Of a stretch of 12,368 nt of DNA, positions 2,841 through 12,368 are shown one piece after another. The stretch lies in the IMG/VR virus record IMGVR_UViG_2531839473_000005, one strand, 5' to 3'. This DNA is from a virus (Duplodnaviria; Heunggongvirae; Uroviricota; Caudoviricetes). The position numbers and the translations under genes were made by a program. The notes below the pieces were generated by a model that saw only the letters and a list, made by a program, of their open reading frames with translations, searched no databases and was not told where the DNA came from. Position 1 is the first letter of the stretch, and each line of letters opens with the position of its first letter.

Positions 2841-4004
2841 TTACGCCTTCTTTATATCCTCCATAATTCCAGAGTGGGACATATTTGGGACATTATCACC
2901 AAAAATGTCGTCTATTTTCCTCGCATGCTCTGTCAAATGATTAGGCGCAAGGTGAGCATACCTACGAACCATTTCTATGGACTCCCATCCGCCCATTTCC
3001 TGAAGCACTGATAATGGGACGCCTGACTGAATCAGCCAGCTTGCCCAGGTGTGTCTGAGGTCATGGAAACGGAAATCTTCAATTCCTGCACGACGACAAG
3101 CTGATAGCCATGATGTCTTGCTGTCGATGCGCATCTTCCTGACCGCAGGCGTTGATGTTCCATCTGCTCGCTTAGCCGCCTTGGTATGTACAAACACCCA
3201 TTTGTGATGCTTGCCTATTTGATCACGCAACACTTTACAGGCGGTATCGTTCAGCGCCACACCAATGGCGCGGTTTGATTTGCTCTCTTCTGGATTCACC
3301 CAGGTAACTCGTCGCTGCATGTCGATTTGTTGCCATTCCAGATTTATGATGTTCGACTTTCTCAGACCAGTTGCCAGCGCAAACTTGACGACAGATTTCA
3401 GTGGTTCGGGGCACTCATCAATAAGGCGTTTTGCTTCCTCCTTTTCCAGCCATCTGACTCGCTTGTTTCTGACCGCTGGTATCTTGATGACAGGCGCTTT
3501 TTCCAGCCACTTCCAGTCGCGTTCTGCAGCACGGAGAATGGCCTTTATCATGGCAAGATGCTTTGCCTTTGTCTGAGTTGATACTGGCTTTGGTTCATAA
3601 ACAGGCGGTTCTTTACCTTTCCTGATGGCGGCCTGAACTTTCTGTTTCCATATTTCTTTCGTCTTTCTGTTATGCATTCTGCTTACAGCAGAGTAAATCT
3701 TTGCCTCCGAGATATCTTTAAGCCTTATACCCTCAAAATGTTCAAGCCAGAACTCAATCCGGCTTTTATCTGAATCGAGAGATTTTTTATCAGCTTTTTC
3801 CTCAAGCCATCTTAGGCAGGCCTCTTCAAAAGTGACATCAGGTAAATCCCCTAGCTTTTCTACTCGCCAGAGTTCTGCTTTTCGCTTGTCGTGCAACTCC
3901 TGAGCTTGCCGCTTGTCCTTTGTGCCAAGAGATTCCTTAATTCGTTTCTCGCCCGGGAGCGAATACGAGGCATACCATATTTCATTTCTGCGGAAGAGTG
4001 ACAT
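2841..4004 (-). CDS. intD: Prophage tyrosine integrase (DLP12 IntD-like), 387 aa
   Basis: Sits directly beside the tRNA; C-terminal HDLRHT...YAHL motifs (tyrosine recombinase R-H-R-Y signature); N-terminus [18 protein letters not shown] recalled from argU-associated integrases. Confidence 0.85.
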
Positions 4005-4231
4005 TTTCTTTCCTCTGTTATGCCATCACCCGCGCTCACCTGGACAGTATGCAGCGGAGACTGAAGCGCCGCAATGCAGGCTTGCCGTGTTGTGAGGTAA
4101 GGAGATTTTGGCTTGGTTGGATCTTTACGTGTTGCCTGTAGGCGGCCTGTTCGTATCCAGTTGGTGGCGGTTGGTCTGGATATCTTAAGAAACTGACAGG
4201 CCTCATCGAGTGTGAGGCTGTATGATTCCAT
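3860..4231 (-). CDS. xis: Excisionase-like DNA-binding protein; 3' end overlaps int in another frame
   Basis: Start set at [31 protein letters not shown] (AlpA/Xis-type HTH) with GAGGTAACC RBS; immediately upstream of int. The true 3' end is uncertain. Confidence 0.55.
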
Positions 4232-4481
4232 GGTTACCTCTGCTTTTTGAACGCATGTCACGTAACTTCTTAATGTGTTCTGCCGTTTCGATCTCTTCTG
4301 CTATCCGATCTGCATCAGCTTTATTCACAGGTTCAAAGTCATGATTAAAGCGGAACATGCTGGCGATACATGTTCTGCCTTTTCGGATGTAGTGAACTTT
4401 GTTGTGGGTAGAACGCAGGATTTTGCAGGGAGTGCCGTGGTGGTCGACGTACCAGGTGTTAGGAAAAATGATTCTGAACAT
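4203..4481 (-). CDS. Hypothetical prophage protein, 92 aa
   Basis: ORF with GAGGTG RBS 7 nt upstream of ATG; start overlaps the xis start by 29 nt; not recognised. Confidence 0.5.
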   Translation of the reverse strand: MFRIIFPNTWYVDHHGTPCKILRSTHNKVHYIRKGRTCIASMFRFNHDFEPVNKADADRIAEEIETAEHIKKLRDMRSKSRGNHGIIQPHTR

Positions 4482-4537
4482 TTTTACACCTCAGTTGGAC
4501 GATGTTGAAATTTGCTGCTTTGAGGCCATCACAGTCC

Positions 4538-4747
4538 CTATTGTTTGTTCTTAAGTTCGATCTCCTCCTGGCAACTCGCACAAGTCCGACAACCCTGAAC
4601 AGCCAGGCGTCTTCGCTCATCTATCGGATCGCCACACTCACAACAATGAGTTGCGGATACAGTCTGGTAGTTCAGACGACGCATTTTTATTGCTGTATTG
4701 CGCTGTAATTCTTCGATTTCTGATGCTGAATCAATGATGTCTGCCAT
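4538..4747 (-). CDS. TraR/DksA-family C4 zinc-finger protein, 69 aa
   Basis: C-x2-C-x17-C-x2-C pattern (HCCECGDPIDERRRLAVQGCRTCASCQ) typical of TraR/DksA zinc fingers common in prophages. Confidence 0.7.
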   Translation of the reverse strand: MADIIDSASEIEELQRNTAIKMRRLNYQTVSATHCCECGDPIDERRRLAVQGCRTCASCQEEIELKNKQ

Positions 4748-4796
4748 CTTTCATTAATCCCTGAATTGTTGGTTAATACGCTTGAGGGTAAATGCG

Positions 4797-4823
4797 AATA
4801 ATAAAAAAGGAGCCTGTAGCTCC
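4797..4823 (-). terminator. Rho-independent terminator (minus strand) between two small accessory genes
   Basis: Minus-strand GGAGC-tacag-GCTCC hairpin followed by TTTTTTATTATT, 23 nt downstream of the stop of ORF 4846-5127. Confidence 0.5.
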
Positions 4824-4845
4824 CTGATGATTTTGCTTTTCATGT

Positions 4846-5127
4846 TTACCGTTCCTTAAAGACGCCGTTCAACATGCCGATCGCCAGGCTTAAATGAGTC
4901 GGTGTGAATCCCATCAGCGTTACCGTTTCGCGGTGCTTCTTTAGTACGCTACGGCAAATGTCATCGACGTTTTTATCCGGAAAATGCTGTCTGGCTTTTT
5001 TGATTTCAGAATTAGCCTGACGGGCAATGCTGCGAAGGGCGTTTTCTTGCTGAGGTGTCATTGAACAAGCCCCATGTCGGCAAGCATAAGCACACAGAAT
5101 ATGAAGCCCGCTGCCAGAAAAATGCAT
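4846..5127 (-). CDS. Hypothetical prophage protein (93 aa ORF; likely 71 aa from internal MTPQQENALR start at 5061)
   Basis: Open frame followed by a terminator; no convincing RBS at the first ATG; not recognised. Confidence 0.45.
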   Translation of the reverse strand: MHFSGSGLHILCAYACRHGACSMTPQQENALRSIARQANSEIKKARQHFPDKNVDDICRSVLKKHRETVTLMGFTPTHLSLAIGMLNGVFKER

Positions 5128-5137
5128 TCAGTGGTTG

Positions 5138-5329
5138 TCATACCTGGTCTCTCTCATCTGCTTCTGCTTTCGCCACCATCATTTCCAGCTTTTGTGAAAG
5201 GGATGTGGCTAACGTATGAAATTCTTCGTCTGTTTCTACTGGTATTGGCACAAACCTGACTCCAATTTGAGCAAGGCTATGTGCCATCTCAATACTCGTT
5301 CTTAACTCAACAGGAGATGCTTTGTGCAT
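5138..5329 (-). CDS. Hypothetical prophage protein, 63 aa
   Basis: Good RBS (GGGAGG 5 nt before ATG); acidic C-terminus; not recognised. Confidence 0.55.
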   Translation of the reverse strand: MHKASPVELRTSIEMAHSLAQIGVRFVPIPVETDEEFHTLATSLSQKLEMMVAKAEADERDQV

Positions 5330-5490
5330 ACCGCCTCCCGTTTATTATTTATCTTCTCAGCCAGCCGCTGTGCTTTCAGTGGATTTCTGATAACAGAAAG
5401 GCCGGGAAATACCCAGCCTCGCTTTGTAACGGAGTAGACGAAAGTGATCGCGCCTACCCGGATATTATCGTGAGGATGCGTCATCGCCAT
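5302..5490 (-). CDS. Hypothetical prophage protein, 62 aa
   Basis: Start overlaps the exo stop by 10 nt (coupling-style arrangement), GGGGA upstream; overlaps the next ORF by 28 nt; not recognised. Confidence 0.4.
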
Positions 5491-6161
5491 TGCTCCCCAA
5501 ATACAAAACCAATTTCAGCCAGTGCCTCGTCCATTTTTTCGATGAACTCCGGCACCATCTCGTCAAAACTCGCCATGTACTTTTCATTCCGCTCAATCAC
5601 GACATAATGCAGGCCTTCACGCTTCATGCGCGGGTCATAGTTGGCAAAGTACCAGGCATCTTTTCGCGTCACCCACATGCTGTACTGCACCTGGGCCATG
5701 TAAGCCGATTTTATTGCCTCGAAACCACCGAGCCGGAATTTCATGAAATCCCGGGAGGTAAACGGGCATTTCAGTTCAAGGCCGTTGCCGTCACTGCATA
5801 AACCATCGGGGGAGCAGGCGGTGCGCATACTTTCGTCGCGATAGATGATCGGGGATTCAGTAATATTCACGCCGGAAGTGAATTCAAACAGGGTTCTGGC
5901 GTCGTTCTCGTACTGTTTTCCCCAGGCCAGCGCCTTAGCATTAACTTCCGGAGCCACACCGGTGCAAACCTCAGCCAGCAGGGTGTGGAAGTAGGACATT
6001 TTCATGTCAGGCCACTTCTTTCCTGAGCGGGGCTTTGCTATCACGTTGTGAACTTCTGAAGCGGTGATGACGCCGAGCCGTAATTTGTGCCATGCATCAT
6101 CCCCCTGTTCGACAGCTCTCACGTCGATCCCGGTACGCTGCAGGATAATGTCCGGTATCAT
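5481..6161 (-). CDS. exo: Lambda-type exonuclease (Red alpha), 226 aa
   Basis: [65 protein letters not shown]... is near-identical to lambda Exo as recalled; ATGA overlap with bet. Confidence 0.95.
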
Positions 6162-6943
6162 GCTGCCACCTTCTGCTCAGTGGCTTTCTGTTTCAGGAAT
6201 CCAAGAGCTTTCACTGCTTCGGCCTGTGTCAGTTCTGACGATGCGTGAATGTCGCGGCGAAATATCTGGGAACAGAGCGGCAATAAGTCGTCATCCCATG
6301 TTTTATCCAGGGCGATCAGCAGAGTGTTAATCTCCTGCATGGTTTCATCGTTAACCGGAGTGATGTCGCGTTCTGGCTGACGTTCTGCAGTGTATGCAGT
6401 ATTTTCGACAATGCGCTCGGCTTCATCCTTGTCATAGATACCAGCAAATCCGAAGGCCAGACGGGCACACTGAATCATGGCTTTATGCCGTAACATCCGT
6501 TTGGGATGCGACTGCCACGGCCCCGTGATTTCTCTGCCTTCGCGGGTTTTGAATGGTTCGCGGCGGCATTCATCCATCCATTCGGTAACGCAGATCGGAT
6601 GATTACGGTCCTTGCGGTAAATCCGGCATGTACAGGATTCATTGTCCTGCTCAAAGTCCATGCCATCAAACTGCTGGTTTTCATTGATGATGCGGGACCA
6701 GCCATCAACGCCCACCACCGGAACAATGCCGTTCTGCTTATCAGGGAAGGCGTAAATTTCTTTCGTCCACGGATTAAGGCCGTACTGGTTGGCGACGATC
6801 AGCAATGCGATGAACTGCGCATCGCTGGCATCACCTTTAAATGCCGTCTGGCGAAGAGTGGTGATCAGTTCCTGTGGGTCGACAGAATCCATGCCGACAC
6901 GTTCAGCCAGCTTCCCTGCCAGCGTTGCGAGTGCTGTACTCAT
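6158..6943 (-). CDS. bet: Red beta single-strand annealing protein, 261 aa
   Basis: [66 protein letters not shown]... is near-identical to lambda Bet as recalled. Confidence 0.95.
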
Positions 6944-6948
6944 CCGTT

Positions 6949-7245
6949 TTATACCTCTGAATCAATATCAACCTGGTGGTGAGCAATGGTTTCAACCATG
7001 TACTGGATGTGTTCTGCCATGCGCTCCTGAAACTCAACATCGTCATCAAACGCACGGGTAATGGCTTTTTTGCTGGCCCCGTGGCGTTGCAAATGATCGA
7101 TGCATAGCGATTCAAACAGGTGCTGGGGCAGGCCTTTTTCCATGTCGTCTGCCAGTTCTGCCTCTTTCTCTTCACGGGCGATCTGCTGGTAGTGACGCGC
7201 CCAGCTCTGAGCCTCAAGACGATCCTGAATGTAATAAGCGTTCAT
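6949..7245 (-). CDS. gam: Gam (RecBCD inhibitor), short 98-aa form
   Basis: [60 protein letters not shown]... matches the C-terminal 98 aa of lambda Gam; strong RBS CAGGAGGT; in-frame stop 19 codons upstream excludes the longer form. Confidence 0.9.
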
Positions 7246-7320
7246 GGCTGACCTCCTGAAAATGGCTGTGAAAATATCGCCCGCGAAATGCCAGGCTGAT
7301 TAGGAAAACAGGAAAGGGGA

Positions 7321-7611
7321 TTAGTGATTCAGGCCGTTACCGCGTCCGTCGAGAAAAACTTCCACGAGCAAATCACGGGTATAAGTGCGCTCGATGCCGC
7401 GATGCAGATAAAGCCGTCCGCGTAAATTAGCTGATGCAGTCCAGGTACCATCTTTGTGTTTGACCAGCATTCCTGGCATGACCGCACCTCGATTAACGGT
7501 CTGCGTTCCATAATGTTGATGAACCATAAAAACTCCTGCCCGTAAGCTGGGCTGCTGAACATATAGAGACTTCTGCGCGTATTCAGGCGGTGGATGGCCG
7601 CCGGTTGTCAT
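7321..7611 (-). CDS. Hypothetical protein at the kil/cIII position, first gene of the leftward early operon (96 aa; possible 68-aa form from internal Met)
   Basis: Longest ORF after the PL-like promoter; GAGG 13 nt upstream of first ATG; an internal ATG has a stronger RBS (GGGCAGGAG); a nested 77-aa ORF in another frame makes the call uncertain. Confidence 0.4.
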
Positions 7612-7804
7612 AACTAAGCCGCCTCGTTGAAGCGACTAAGGTATGAAATGTTGAGTTAATTTCAGCTGGTCACACCGACGTTCACGCGTCCGTTTCACCC
7701 CTCGCACTCCCCGAAGCCTGCTGAAATTCAAACTGCGGATCTAAGCGGTCATCGCAACGGTGAATCAGGTAGTTGCCGTATCGTTGTGTTGTTGCGATGA
7801 ACTT

Positions 7805-7856
7805 ATTTAAAACTATAGTTGTTTTATTGTCAACAACAAAAGTTGTTTTATTGGTT
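7805..7856 (-). promoter_or_regulatory. PL-like leftward early promoter with OL-like operator repeats
   Basis: Minus strand: TTGACA (7833-7828), 17-bp spacer, TTAAAT (7810-7805); -35 embedded in GTTGTTGACAATAAAACAAC with flanking AACAAC/GTTGTT inverted and direct repeats. Confidence 0.5.
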
Positions 7857-7974
7857 GTTTTAGATATAACTGGTTGTATTTAGGATGGATTTATTTTGTG
7901 ACTTGAATCGCATAGCGATAACTGAAGTGAGGTTATGGTGGTTTTTTTAACGGTGTGTGTGATGAGGGGAGGGC

Positions 7975-8001
7975 AAAAGAAAACCCGGCACGGTGACCGG
8001 G
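7975..8001 (-). terminator. Rho-independent terminator downstream of the repressor gene
   Basis: Minus strand CCCGG-N8-CCGGG hairpin followed by TTTTCTTTT, about 120 nt after the cI stop. Confidence 0.55.
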
Positions 8002-8122
8002 ATTCTTACGCCGTTAGGTAAAGATATTATTGCGGTGGCTTAATATTACTACCTAGAGCAAAGATAGGAATTAGTTCTTTACTGAATGAGCACAATGCCC
8101 AGTTGATAATTTTTAATTGGTA

Positions 8123-8812
8123 CTACCCATGCTTCCTATATGTCTGCGGCATGCTCCCAATAACCTTACCGAAGATGAACACCCGGTTCATCTCGTCTTT
8201 CTCGATCGGGTCCCACGGTGAGTAGCTTTTGTTATCAGAGATGACCAGCAGCTTATCCTTCATCATTTGCAGGCGCTTTACATGGGCTGTGTCGTCGTAC
8301 AGAAACGCATAGATACCATCACCGTCGAAAGATTTAACTGTGATATCAACGAACAGCAGATCACCTGGTTCGATCGTTCCTGACATGCTGTCACCACGCA
8401 CGTTAATGATGCGGATATTTTCCGCCTTCCTACCATCGAACATGTGACGAGCATCGTCAAACGAGTACTCAACCGAGCGTAGAACTTCTACAAACTCACG
8501 GTTGATGACTCCCGGCCCAGCACTGACTTCTATATCAAGAACGTCAATCTTGAAGTATTTGGAATGGCTGACAGTTGATTGTATTGGTTGCACTGTACTG
8601 TCTGACATATTTCCAACGCCAGAAGATAACCATTCTGCGCGCACACCCAAAGCGTTCGCGATCTCCACGATTTTAGTTGTTTGATTAGCTTTCCCTGTTT
8701 CGATTTTCTGAATAGCAGCCTGGCTAACCCCGACCAAATCCCCAAGCGCCTTTTGTGTAAGGCCTCGCGCTAATCTGGCTTCTTTAAGTCTTTCTGAGAG
8801 TGTTGTTTTCAT
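8123..8812 (-). CDS. cI: CI-type prophage repressor (XRE-family HTH plus S24 LexA-like autopeptidase), 229 aa
   Basis: N-terminal HTH (LTQKALGDLVGVSQAAIQKIETGK); C-terminal RGDSMSGTIEPGDLLFVD and downstream HVKRL (Ser/Lys dyad); start at internal Met because the longer ORF would run through the operator. Confidence 0.85.
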   Translation of the reverse strand: MKTTLSERLKEARLARGLTQKALGDLVGVSQAAIQKIETGKANQTTKIVEIANALGVRAEWLSSGVGNMSDSTVQPIQSTVSHSKYFKIDVLDIEVSAGPGVINREFVEVLRSVEYSFDDARHMFDGRKAENIRIINVRGDSMSGTIEPGDLLFVDITVKSFDGDGIYAFLYDDTAHVKRLQMMKDKLLVISDNKSYSPWDPIEKDEMNRVFIFGKVIGSMPQTYRKHG

Positions 8813-8823
8813 AGTCCAAATGT

Positions 8824-8889
8824 ACAACCAAGGTTTTATTCCATCAAACGAAAATGGTTGTTGACTAAAAACAACCATAGTTTTAATCT
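8824..8889 (+). promoter_or_regulatory. OR-like operator region with rightward PR-like promoter
   Basis: Palindrome ATGGTTGTT-gactaaa-AACAACCAT (8854-8878) containing -35 TTGACT (8861-8866); candidate -10 TTTAAT (8882-8887); second half-site pair ACAACC-aa-GGTTTT at 8824-8837; cro RBS ACGGAGG follows. Confidence 0.55.
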
Positions 8890-9147: not shown

Positions 9148-9216
9148 ATTTCCATTTCACGCTCTTTAACAATAAGCAATCAACTTAACAGTCAATTCAA
9201 ACTAAAGGAGTCAATT

Positions 9217-9756
9217 ATGCAACCACTTACATACCAACAGACTAGCGGATTTAGCCCGACTGCGGTGATAAATCGTTCTCAAACAAAACAGGTGCCAGGC
9301 CACGAAAAAATCCGTGATGCCGTCCGCGCCTGGTCGGCTGTAGATAATCAGGATGTCGTTGCCACACTCATTGTGAATGAGTATCGGGAGCAGGGCGGCG
9401 GCACCATCGATTTCCCTGATGATGTCAGCCGTGCACGCCAGAAGCTGTTCCGCTTCCTCGATAACAAATTCGATTCTGAAAAATACCGAAATAACGTGCG
9501 TGAACTGACCCCGGCAATTCTGGCGGTACTACCGCTGGAATATCGCGGTTACCTGGTTGAGCAGGATAGCTTCATGGCTAGGTTGGCTGAAATGGAAAAG
9601 GAACTCAGTGAGGCAAAACAGGCTGTCATTCTCAACGCACCACGCCACCAGAAACTGAAGGAAATTAGTGAAGGTATTGTGTCGATGTTTCGTGTGGACC
9701 CAGATCTGGCTGGTCCATTGATGGCGATGGTTACTACCATGCTGGGGGCGATATGA
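9217..9756 (+). CDS. YdaT-like protein occupying the cII position, 179 aa
   Basis: AAAGGAG RBS; motifs IVNEYREQGGG and LTPAILAVLPLEYRGYL resemble Rac YdaT as recalled (EYLRQGGG, LIPAILAILPRELR). Confidence 0.6.
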   Translation: MQPLTYQQTSGFSPTAVINRSQTKQVPGHEKIRDAVRAWSAVDNQDVVATLIVNEYREQGGGTIDFPDDVSRARQKLFRFLDNKFDSEKYRNNVRELTPAILAVLPLEYRGYLVEQDSFMARLAEMEKELSEAKQAVILNAPRHQKLKEISEGIVSMFRVDPDLAGPLMAMVTTMLGAI

Positions 9757-11930: not shown

Positions 11931-12368
11931 TAGACTGGCCCCCTGAATCTCCAGACAACCAGTATCACTTAAATAAGTGATAGTCTTAATACTAGTTTTT
12001 AGACTAGTCATTGGAGAACAGATGATTGATGTCTTAGGGCCGGAGAAACGCAGACGGCGTACCACACAGGAAAAGATCGCAATTGTTCAGCAGAGCTTTG
12101 AACCGGGGATGACGGTCTCCCTCGTTGCCCGGCAACATGGTGTAGCAGCCAGCCAGTTATTTCTCTGGCGTAAGCAATACCAGGAAGGAAGTCTTACTGC
12201 TGTCGCCGCCGGAGAACAGGTTGTTCCTGCCTCTGAACTTGCTGCCGCCATGAAGCAGATTAAAGAACTCCAGCGCCTGCTCGGCAAGAAAACGATGGAA
12301 AATGAACTCCTCAAAGAAGCCGTTGAATATGGACGGGCAAAAAAGTGGATAGCGCACGCGCCCTTATT
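11931..12368 (+). mobile_element. IS2 (IS3 family), partial copy cut by window end; IRL tip at 11931 faces the window interior
   Basis: Begins TAGACTGGCCCCCTGAATCTCCAGACAACC; reverse complement of the left copy (1-484) over the shared length, with identical ORF translations. Confidence 0.9.
12022..12368 (+). CDS. insC: IS2 transposase OrfA (InsC), 3'-incomplete at window edge
   Basis: ATG at 12022 followed by [18 protein letters not shown]...; runs to the end of the window. Confidence 0.85.

Follow-up and report, generated by a model that had tools for sequence, protein, structure and literature searches.

The region between exo and xis has been characterized in lambda and in Shiga toxin (Stx) phages by the Wegrzyn and Donaldson laboratories. 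In these phages orf60a, orf63, orf61, orf73, and ea22 make up a conserved block that is transcribed early from pL and was confirmed by ribosome profiling; orf60a, orf63, and orf61 are described as pro-lytic, and orf73 and ea22 as pro-lysogenic (PMC8614690). Published work on lambda and phi24B reports that deletion of orf60a or orf61 changes lysogenization and induction, and that deletion or overexpression of orf60a, orf63, or orf61 shifts the lysis-lysogeny decision and the timing of induction toward lysis. Knowledge of the region also includes solved structures, deletion phenotypes, and, for Orf73, a biochemical mechanism (PMC8614690, PMC9239242). Here we compare with this region a cluster of five small open reading frames (ORFs) in a window of 12,368 nucleotides (nt), the whole stretch of virus DNA analyzed (IMG/VR record IMGVR_UViG_2531839473_000005, Caudoviricetes). 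The ORFs lie on the minus strand and occupy positions 4203-5490 between xis and exo, exactly where the original prediction had placed them. We conclude that the cluster very probably represents a lambdoid prophage's exo-xis region, which forms the distal and non-essential part of the early leftward (pL) operon. The prophage is integrated at a tRNA gene next to fimZ.

Window positions 4551-6300 align with positions 30418-32167 of lambda (NC_001416) at 96.3% nucleotide identity over 1750 nt (blastn), from exo through orf73. This part of lambda carries exo, orf60a, orf63, orf61, and an unannotated 73-codon ORF in the gene order of the window. The order orf60a, orf63, orf61, orf73 is accompanied by protein identities of 88-97% to lambda or Stx-phage proteins. 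The position and strand between exo and xis are those of the lambda and Stx-phage region, and the two terminator-like hairpins of that region, t1 and t2, are identical. By these alignments, four of the five genes are lambda's published orf60a, orf63, orf61, and orf73, in a region that was already known. The location matches the earlier proposal of a lambda accessory region between xis and exo, but the accompanying view that only one of the ORFs is recognizable did not survive: four of the five reach Pfam gathering scores, and all five match PHROG families (E 1e-25 to 1e-42). The differences from lambda are concentrated at the xis end. The window has no ea22, ea8.5, or orf55, and a single gene encoding a DUF4222 protein occupies this variable slot adjoining xis; the int/xis module is of the P22/SfI type, and there is no N gene.

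The upstream boundary of the cluster is exo (5481-6161, minus strand), which encodes a lambda exonuclease (Pfam YqaJ, E=2.6e-29) identical to lambda Exo at 221 of 226 residues. Next to it is the orf60a homologue (5302-5490, minus strand; DUF1317, PF07026, E=2.5e-38). The longest ORF encodes 62 amino acids (aa), 60 of which are identical in lambda Orf60a; lambda and the NCBI Prokaryotic Genome Annotation Pipeline (PGAP) use a 60-aa form that starts at 5484. The reading frame overlaps by 28 nt that of the orf63 homologue (5138-5329, minus strand; 63 aa; DUF1382, PF07131, E=7.7e-31). The Orf63 protein is identical to lambda Orf63 at 59 of 63 residues and matches the nuclear magnetic resonance (NMR) structure 8DSB (E=7e-33). 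[quoted passage not shown]

The orf61 homologue (4846-5127, minus strand) is present in an intact long form of 93 aa, as it is in Stx phages, and is identical to ORF-50c of Stx2 phage I at 90 of 93 residues. It matched no Pfam family and was recognized through PHROG (phrog_303, E=1.3e-42). An alternative 71-aa form (4846-5061, ATG at 5061) is annotated by PGAP and in several phage records. In lambda, orf61 is frameshifted by an extra A in an A-run (A7 versus A6) and cut short; the site corresponds to about position 4995 of the window, and both the window and Stx phages have the 93-aa gene intact. What the orf61 annotation of lambda describes is therefore a truncated product, and the frameshift agrees with the earlier remark that Orf61 of lambda looks truncated relative to that of Stx phages (PMC8614690). 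Published models give Orf60a a small beta-sheet DNA-binding fold and make the long Orf61 homeodomain-like (PMC8614690), so both proteins may bind DNA. On an identical segment of Escherichia coli strain C8, PGAP calls a DUF4222 domain-containing protein, a TraR/DksA family transcriptional regulator, a hypothetical protein (the 71-aa orf61), a DUF1382 family protein, and a DUF1317 domain-containing protein.

The five ORFs, which fill about 87% of the 1288 bases (arithmetic from the ORF coordinates), are real genes and not chance reading frames. We counted distinct variants by codon position between the window and eight related phages (lambda, 2G7b, 434, 21, SfI, HK639, and two Stx phages). Variants fall mostly at third positions in the DUF4222 gene (15/10/41 at positions 1/2/3), orf73 (7/4/20), and orf61 (3/1/10), as they do in the exo control (10/4/36). 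Counts for orf63 (5/8/10) and orf60a (5/7/13) lack a clear bias; the test is uninformative for these two genes because they have few variants, being highly conserved, and overlap each other. Their coding status therefore rests on the family scores and, for orf63, also on the solved structure. The original prediction had named absence of conservation or of a coding signal as what would count against it, and neither was found.

The gene with the best-supported role is the orf73 homologue (4538-4747, minus strand; 69 aa), which encodes a TraR-like protein with a four-cysteine (C4) zinc finger. Its score against PF01258 (zf-dskA_traR) is 37.4 bits (cutoff 24.9), and it matches the TraR chains in the RNA polymerase complexes 5W1S and 6N57. 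Against TIGR02419, the NCBIfam TraR subfamily, it scores 54.1 bits (E=1.7e-14), below the curated cutoff of 59.7. Lambda Orf73 is identical at 61 of 69 residues (88%). The window protein starts MADIIDSA, retaining D3, D6, and A8 of the DxxDxA motif, and a CxxC...CxxC zinc finger can be read at C35/C38 and C56/C59. It shares with TraR of the F plasmid and with lambda Orf73 a similar size, the DxxDxA motif, and the four-cysteine zinc finger; it differs in falling below the TraR-subfamily cutoff. Its C terminus is distinct from that of lambda Orf73 and four residues shorter because a mosaic joint lies at about 4552.

Lambda Orf73 binds RNA polymerase at the DksA/TraR site in the secondary channel. 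No ppGpp is required for its inhibition of rRNA and ribosomal-protein promoters; rrnB P1 is inhibited with a half-maximal concentration (IC50) of ~50 nM, and D3 and D6 are needed (PMC9239242). With lambda Orf73, host growth is slowed and phage yield is about 4-fold higher (PMC9239242). By analogy, we infer that the window Orf73 would bind the secondary channel of RNA polymerase and inhibit rRNA promoters. The suggestion that the zinc-finger ORF is a TraR/DksA-type RNA polymerase binder thus has experimental backing in the 88% identical lambda protein, and the host-takeover function once proposed for the cluster fits Orf73.

The DUF4222 gene (4203-4481, minus strand; 92 aa; PF13973, E=1.9e-19) occupies the place of ea22/ea8.5/orf55 in lambda and overlaps the start of xis by its final 29 nt. 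The gene was found in 57 phage records, including 21, HK639, SfI, phiP27, and phages of Klebsiella, Enterobacter, and Salmonella, and it adjoins xis in the phages inspected (21, SfI, and 2G7b). A large protein search returned 134 relatives; all those with a named source are enterobacterial, and the listed matches are 64-100% identical. Residues 1-79 form a conserved core in these relatives, and the C-terminal tails are variable. No solved structure was matched by sequence search. An AlphaFold2 model (predicted local distance difference test, pLDDT, 84; predicted template modeling score, pTM, 0.64) has five short strands arranged as a small beta-barrel, a short helix, and a long C-terminal helix (residues 54-81). 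Its Foldseek neighbors are generic small barrels, namely PWWP with single-stranded DNA, TnsB, Spt5 KOW, and the HIV integrase C-terminal domain, and further the Tudor-like domains of RapA and UvrD; all of these barrels bind nucleic acids or polymerase. The model points to an SH3/Tudor/KOW-like barrel plus helix, at the level of fold class only, and the protein probably acts as a small regulator with nucleic acid or a host protein as its binding partner.

RgdR (ECs1581), of prophage Sp7 in E. coli O157:H7 Sakai, is the one member of the DUF4222 family that has been studied; it is an activator of type III secretion, acting by way of Ler, and depends on an RGD motif. Taken from the Sakai genome, RgdR matches Pfam DUF4222 well above threshold (E=2.1e-23) and is likewise a small prophage protein (99 versus 92 aa). 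Its identity to the window protein is 24% over 75 residues, and R20-G21-D22 aligns with P7-N8-T9, so the RGD motif is absent here; P7 is nearly invariant in the subfamily of the window protein. On the grounds of this low identity and the absent motif, we rejected the RgdR function for the window gene. The settings also differ: the RgdR gene adjoins a primase gene in a non-lambdoid element, unlike the window gene beside xis, and the host of the window prophage may lack LEE type III secretion, the pathway that RgdR targets.

The cluster is widespread and is carried by viable phages. A query of window positions 3800-5600 matches 4321 of 5426 complete E. coli genomes, with at least 80% of the query covered in 845. 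At the megablast level 201 phage records match, 35 of them with the whole layout. The same five-gene layout, including the DUF4222 gene, is found at 97.9-99.9% identity in phages PhiR34_1, 2G7b, ev243, and Turner; PhiR34_1, at 99.9%, has been propagated on MG1655. The intD-adjacent prophage of many E. coli strains is also among the closest known systems. SfI differs in carrying an extra insert where the window has orf63.

Two predicted terminators lie within the cluster. A consensus scan found t2 (4797-4825, minus strand) between orf61 and orf73, as a hairpin AGGGAGCU-ACA-GGCUCCUU at 4825-4807 followed by UUUUAUUAUU at 4806-4797. The 8-bp stem has four G-C pairs and a 3-nt loop, and the U-rich tract UUUUAUUAUU follows it directly, as expected of an intrinsic terminator. 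The folding energy is -10.2 kcal/mol (z=-1.5 versus shuffles). Across seven phages the only changes in the hairpin and T tract are a G to T change of one stem base in phage 21 and one change in the distal tail in 434, and a 103-nt interval around t2 is 98% conserved, versus 88-92% for the adjoining orf73. Bloch et al. predicted t2 in lambda and phi24B, between orf61 and orf73, as AAAATCATCAGGGAGCT ACA GGCTCCTTTTTTATTATT (PMC4195576), and the window copy is the same base for base. By quantitative reverse transcription PCR in lambda, orf73, ea22, and ea8.5 have lower mRNA levels than the ORFs upstream of them (PMC4195576). The terminator of the original prediction is thus present as a sequence feature (hairpin 4807-4825, T tract to 4797), a terminator-like element between two groups of genes.

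A second terminator-like hairpin, t1 (5388-5420, minus strand), lies inside orf60a and was not part of the original prediction, nor was a small ORF that spans t2. The consensus scan placed the t1 hairpin at 5420-5398 (GAGGCUGGG-UAUUU-CCCGGCCUU, with a U-poor tail), and the local fold has an energy of -20.9 kcal/mol (z=-3.8). The stem-loop is the same as the t1 that Bloch et al. predicted in lambda and phi24B, TTACAAAGCGAGGCTGGG TATTT CCCGGCCTTTCTGTTATCC (PMC4195576). Searches against Rfam returned only the tRNA at gathering thresholds and, over 4100-8200, nothing at E up to 1. We take t1 to be probably lambda tL3, which pKD46 (lambda 31088-33241) carries downstream of exo.

In the exo-xis reading, leftward transcription would proceed in the order pL, kil, gam, bet, exo, orf60a, orf63, orf61, (t2), orf73, DUF4222, xis, int. 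Transcription lacking antitermination would be damped by t1, inside orf60a, and by t2, after orf61, so that orf73, DUF4222, xis, and int would be expressed at a lower level than the pro-lytic genes. The DUF4222 protein would take the slot held by ea22 in lambda.

Several observations weigh against this assignment. Downstream of orf73 the window has no ea22, which is part of the conserved block, and homology with lambda stops at window position 4551. Both t1 and t2 are predicted terminators here, and the t2 hairpin is modest in energy and z score. The roles of Orf60a, Orf61, Orf63, and the DUF4222 protein rest on phenotypes or models, and the Foldseek neighbors of the DUF4222 model are weak, with E values of 0.016 at best. 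The direction in which orf73 acts is disputed in the literature, being pro-lysogenic in the Wegrzyn assays (PMC8614690) and pro-lytic in the Gourse study (PMC9239242).

An unlikely alternative for the role of t2 is that it is a translation-sensitive attenuator: ribosomes arriving from orf61 by translational coupling would open the hairpin and let transcription continue into orf73, DUF4222, xis, and int, and without translation t2 would terminate. The idea comes from a 29-codon ORF (4754-4843, minus strand; translation MKSKIIRELQAPFLLFAFTLKRINQQFRD) whose ATG lies 2 nt past the orf61 stop and whose codons 7-12 are the t2 hairpin. It is annotated as a coding sequence in phages 434, 21, and SfI, and its lambda counterpart keeps 31 codons; a 31-aa orf2313 was detected in the exo-xis block by ribosome profiling (PMC8614690). 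The lambda ORF is probably orf2313, but that identity comes from length and position only. The strong conservation of the interval around t2 would also fit, yet it could come from the terminator alone or from recent common descent. Read-through by some other means would be needed in a prophage without an N gene. However, the ORF gives no coding signal, its three synonymous and three non-synonymous variants being too few for a coding test, and family searches gave no match for its peptide. We consider it quite doubtful that t2, in this N-less phage, is an attenuator within a translated, orf61-coupled ORF that controls the amount of early leftward transcription arriving at orf73, DUF4222, xis, and int. 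If it were, t2 would tie excision and the shut-off of host transcription to the translational state of the cell.

The original prediction had called the cluster moron-like, on the view that the terminator splits it into at least two transcription units. Stated fully, orf73 and the DUF4222 gene would be expressed from a promoter of their own, p1, also in the lysogen, and be insulated from pL by t2. Bloch et al. did report a BPROM-predicted p1 in lambda and phi24B, overlapping t2 (-35 TCATCA, -10 TTTTATTAT), and found orf73 and ea22 mRNA above that of the upstream genes in phi24B after H2O2 induction (PMC4195576). The content of the DUF4222 slot also differs between phages. But p1 is weak, agreeing with the consensus at about 7 of 12 positions at workable spacing, and the consensus scan reported no minus-strand promoter at t2. 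The same scan found no terminator between the DUF4222 gene (4203) and xis-int, and mRNA levels in lambda drop downstream instead of rising. Coverage classes among the phage matches place mosaic joints at ~4552 (the 3' end of orf73) and ~4252 (about codon 79 of the DUF4222 gene), neither of which coincides with the terminator; orf73 is therefore part of the conserved block from exo to orf73, not of an inserted cassette. What the window shows is an operon with a variable slot rather than an insert made up of promoter, gene, and terminator, and a moron-like unit is improbable.

That the cluster is an anti-defense or phage-exclusion cassette, whose small proteins inhibit host immunity or exclude other phages, is very improbable. 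There is general precedent in that small early genes of temperate phages often act in this way, as do the lambda neighbors gam and ral, but the five proteins match no PADLOC model (these being models of defense systems only), and the phenotypes in the literature relate to the lysis-lysogeny decision, induction, and host transcription, not to defense. The reading that some of the ORFs are spurious, as non-coding or decaying prophage DNA, draws on the unbiased codon-position counts of orf63 and orf60a, the frameshift in lambda orf61, the omission by PGAP of the first 22 codons of the 93-aa orf61, and the start of SfI similarity to orf61 only at about codon 28, but it is already largely refuted and has next to no probability, given strong family matches for all five, the solved Orf63 structure, ribosome profiling and phenotypes in lambda and phi24B, and intact copies of all five in viable phages.

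The exo-xis assignment carries little weight as a discovery because the region has been described for more than ten years in lambda and Stx phages. It is useful for annotation, as four "hypothetical" genes can be named orf60a, orf63, orf61, and orf73, and the hairpins t1 and t2. If pL transcripts lack antitermination here, t1 and t2 would limit the expression of orf73, DUF4222, xis, and int, and the idea of two transcription units would be closer to the truth here than in lambda.

No gene for an N-like antiterminator was identified in this prophage, in which ~510 bp (7612-8122) between the repressor gene and kil contain no ORF of at least 40 aa. The flanking genes are a cI-type repressor gene (8123-8878) and kil (7321-7611; phrog_294, E=1e-38). 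PhiR34_1 shares this N-less layout between cI and kil; 2G7b, with the same exo-xis cluster, differs in having N and other genes between kil and cI. A candidate pL lies on the minus strand (TTGACA at 7834-7829, N17, TTAAAT), among AACAAC/GTTGTT repeats. An HK022-type put RNA was considered past the candidate pL or after cro and rejected, as sensitive blastn gave no similarity to putL/putR; the fold of the leader past the candidate pL is not unusual (z=-0.95). A terminator-like hairpin at 7975-8001 (minus strand, CCCGGTCACCGTGCCGGG then TTTTCTTTT) lies between the repressor gene and the candidate pL, just downstream of the former.

Directly after cro, at 9160-9172, is CGCTCTTTAACAA, a near-perfect match to the boxA of rrn, TGCTCTTTAACAA. 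It is not followed by an obvious boxB hairpin, an oddity in a phage that lacks N. At the position of cII lies a gene (9217-9756), annotated as cII in PhiR34_1, that encodes 179 aa, almost double the length of lambda CII.

On its downstream side the cluster is bounded by xis, a P22/SfI-type excisionase gene (3860-4231, minus strand; HTH_17, E=1.3e-8; phrog_2907, E=3e-46) that is annotated as xis in SfI. The ORF extends over 3860-4261, with the likely start at the ATG at 4231, and overlaps int (2841-4004) by 145 nt. Compared with SfI, variants at codon positions 1/2/3 number 14/22/16, with no third-position bias, and there are four gap positions; PGAP calls only a 66-nt xis remnant, marked as a pseudogene. 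Possible explanations are decay of the gene in this lineage and masking of the signal by dual coding.

Copies of an IS2 end (InsC reading frame) bracket the window at 47-484 and 11931-12368, forming a perfect inverted repeat of 438 nt. The IS2 copies cut off the prophage, and the late region is therefore missing from the window. By our own reading, the IS2 ends truncate a fimbrial gene on the left, sfmH, and emrE on the right; the arrangement may be the product of an IS2-mediated inversion or deletion.

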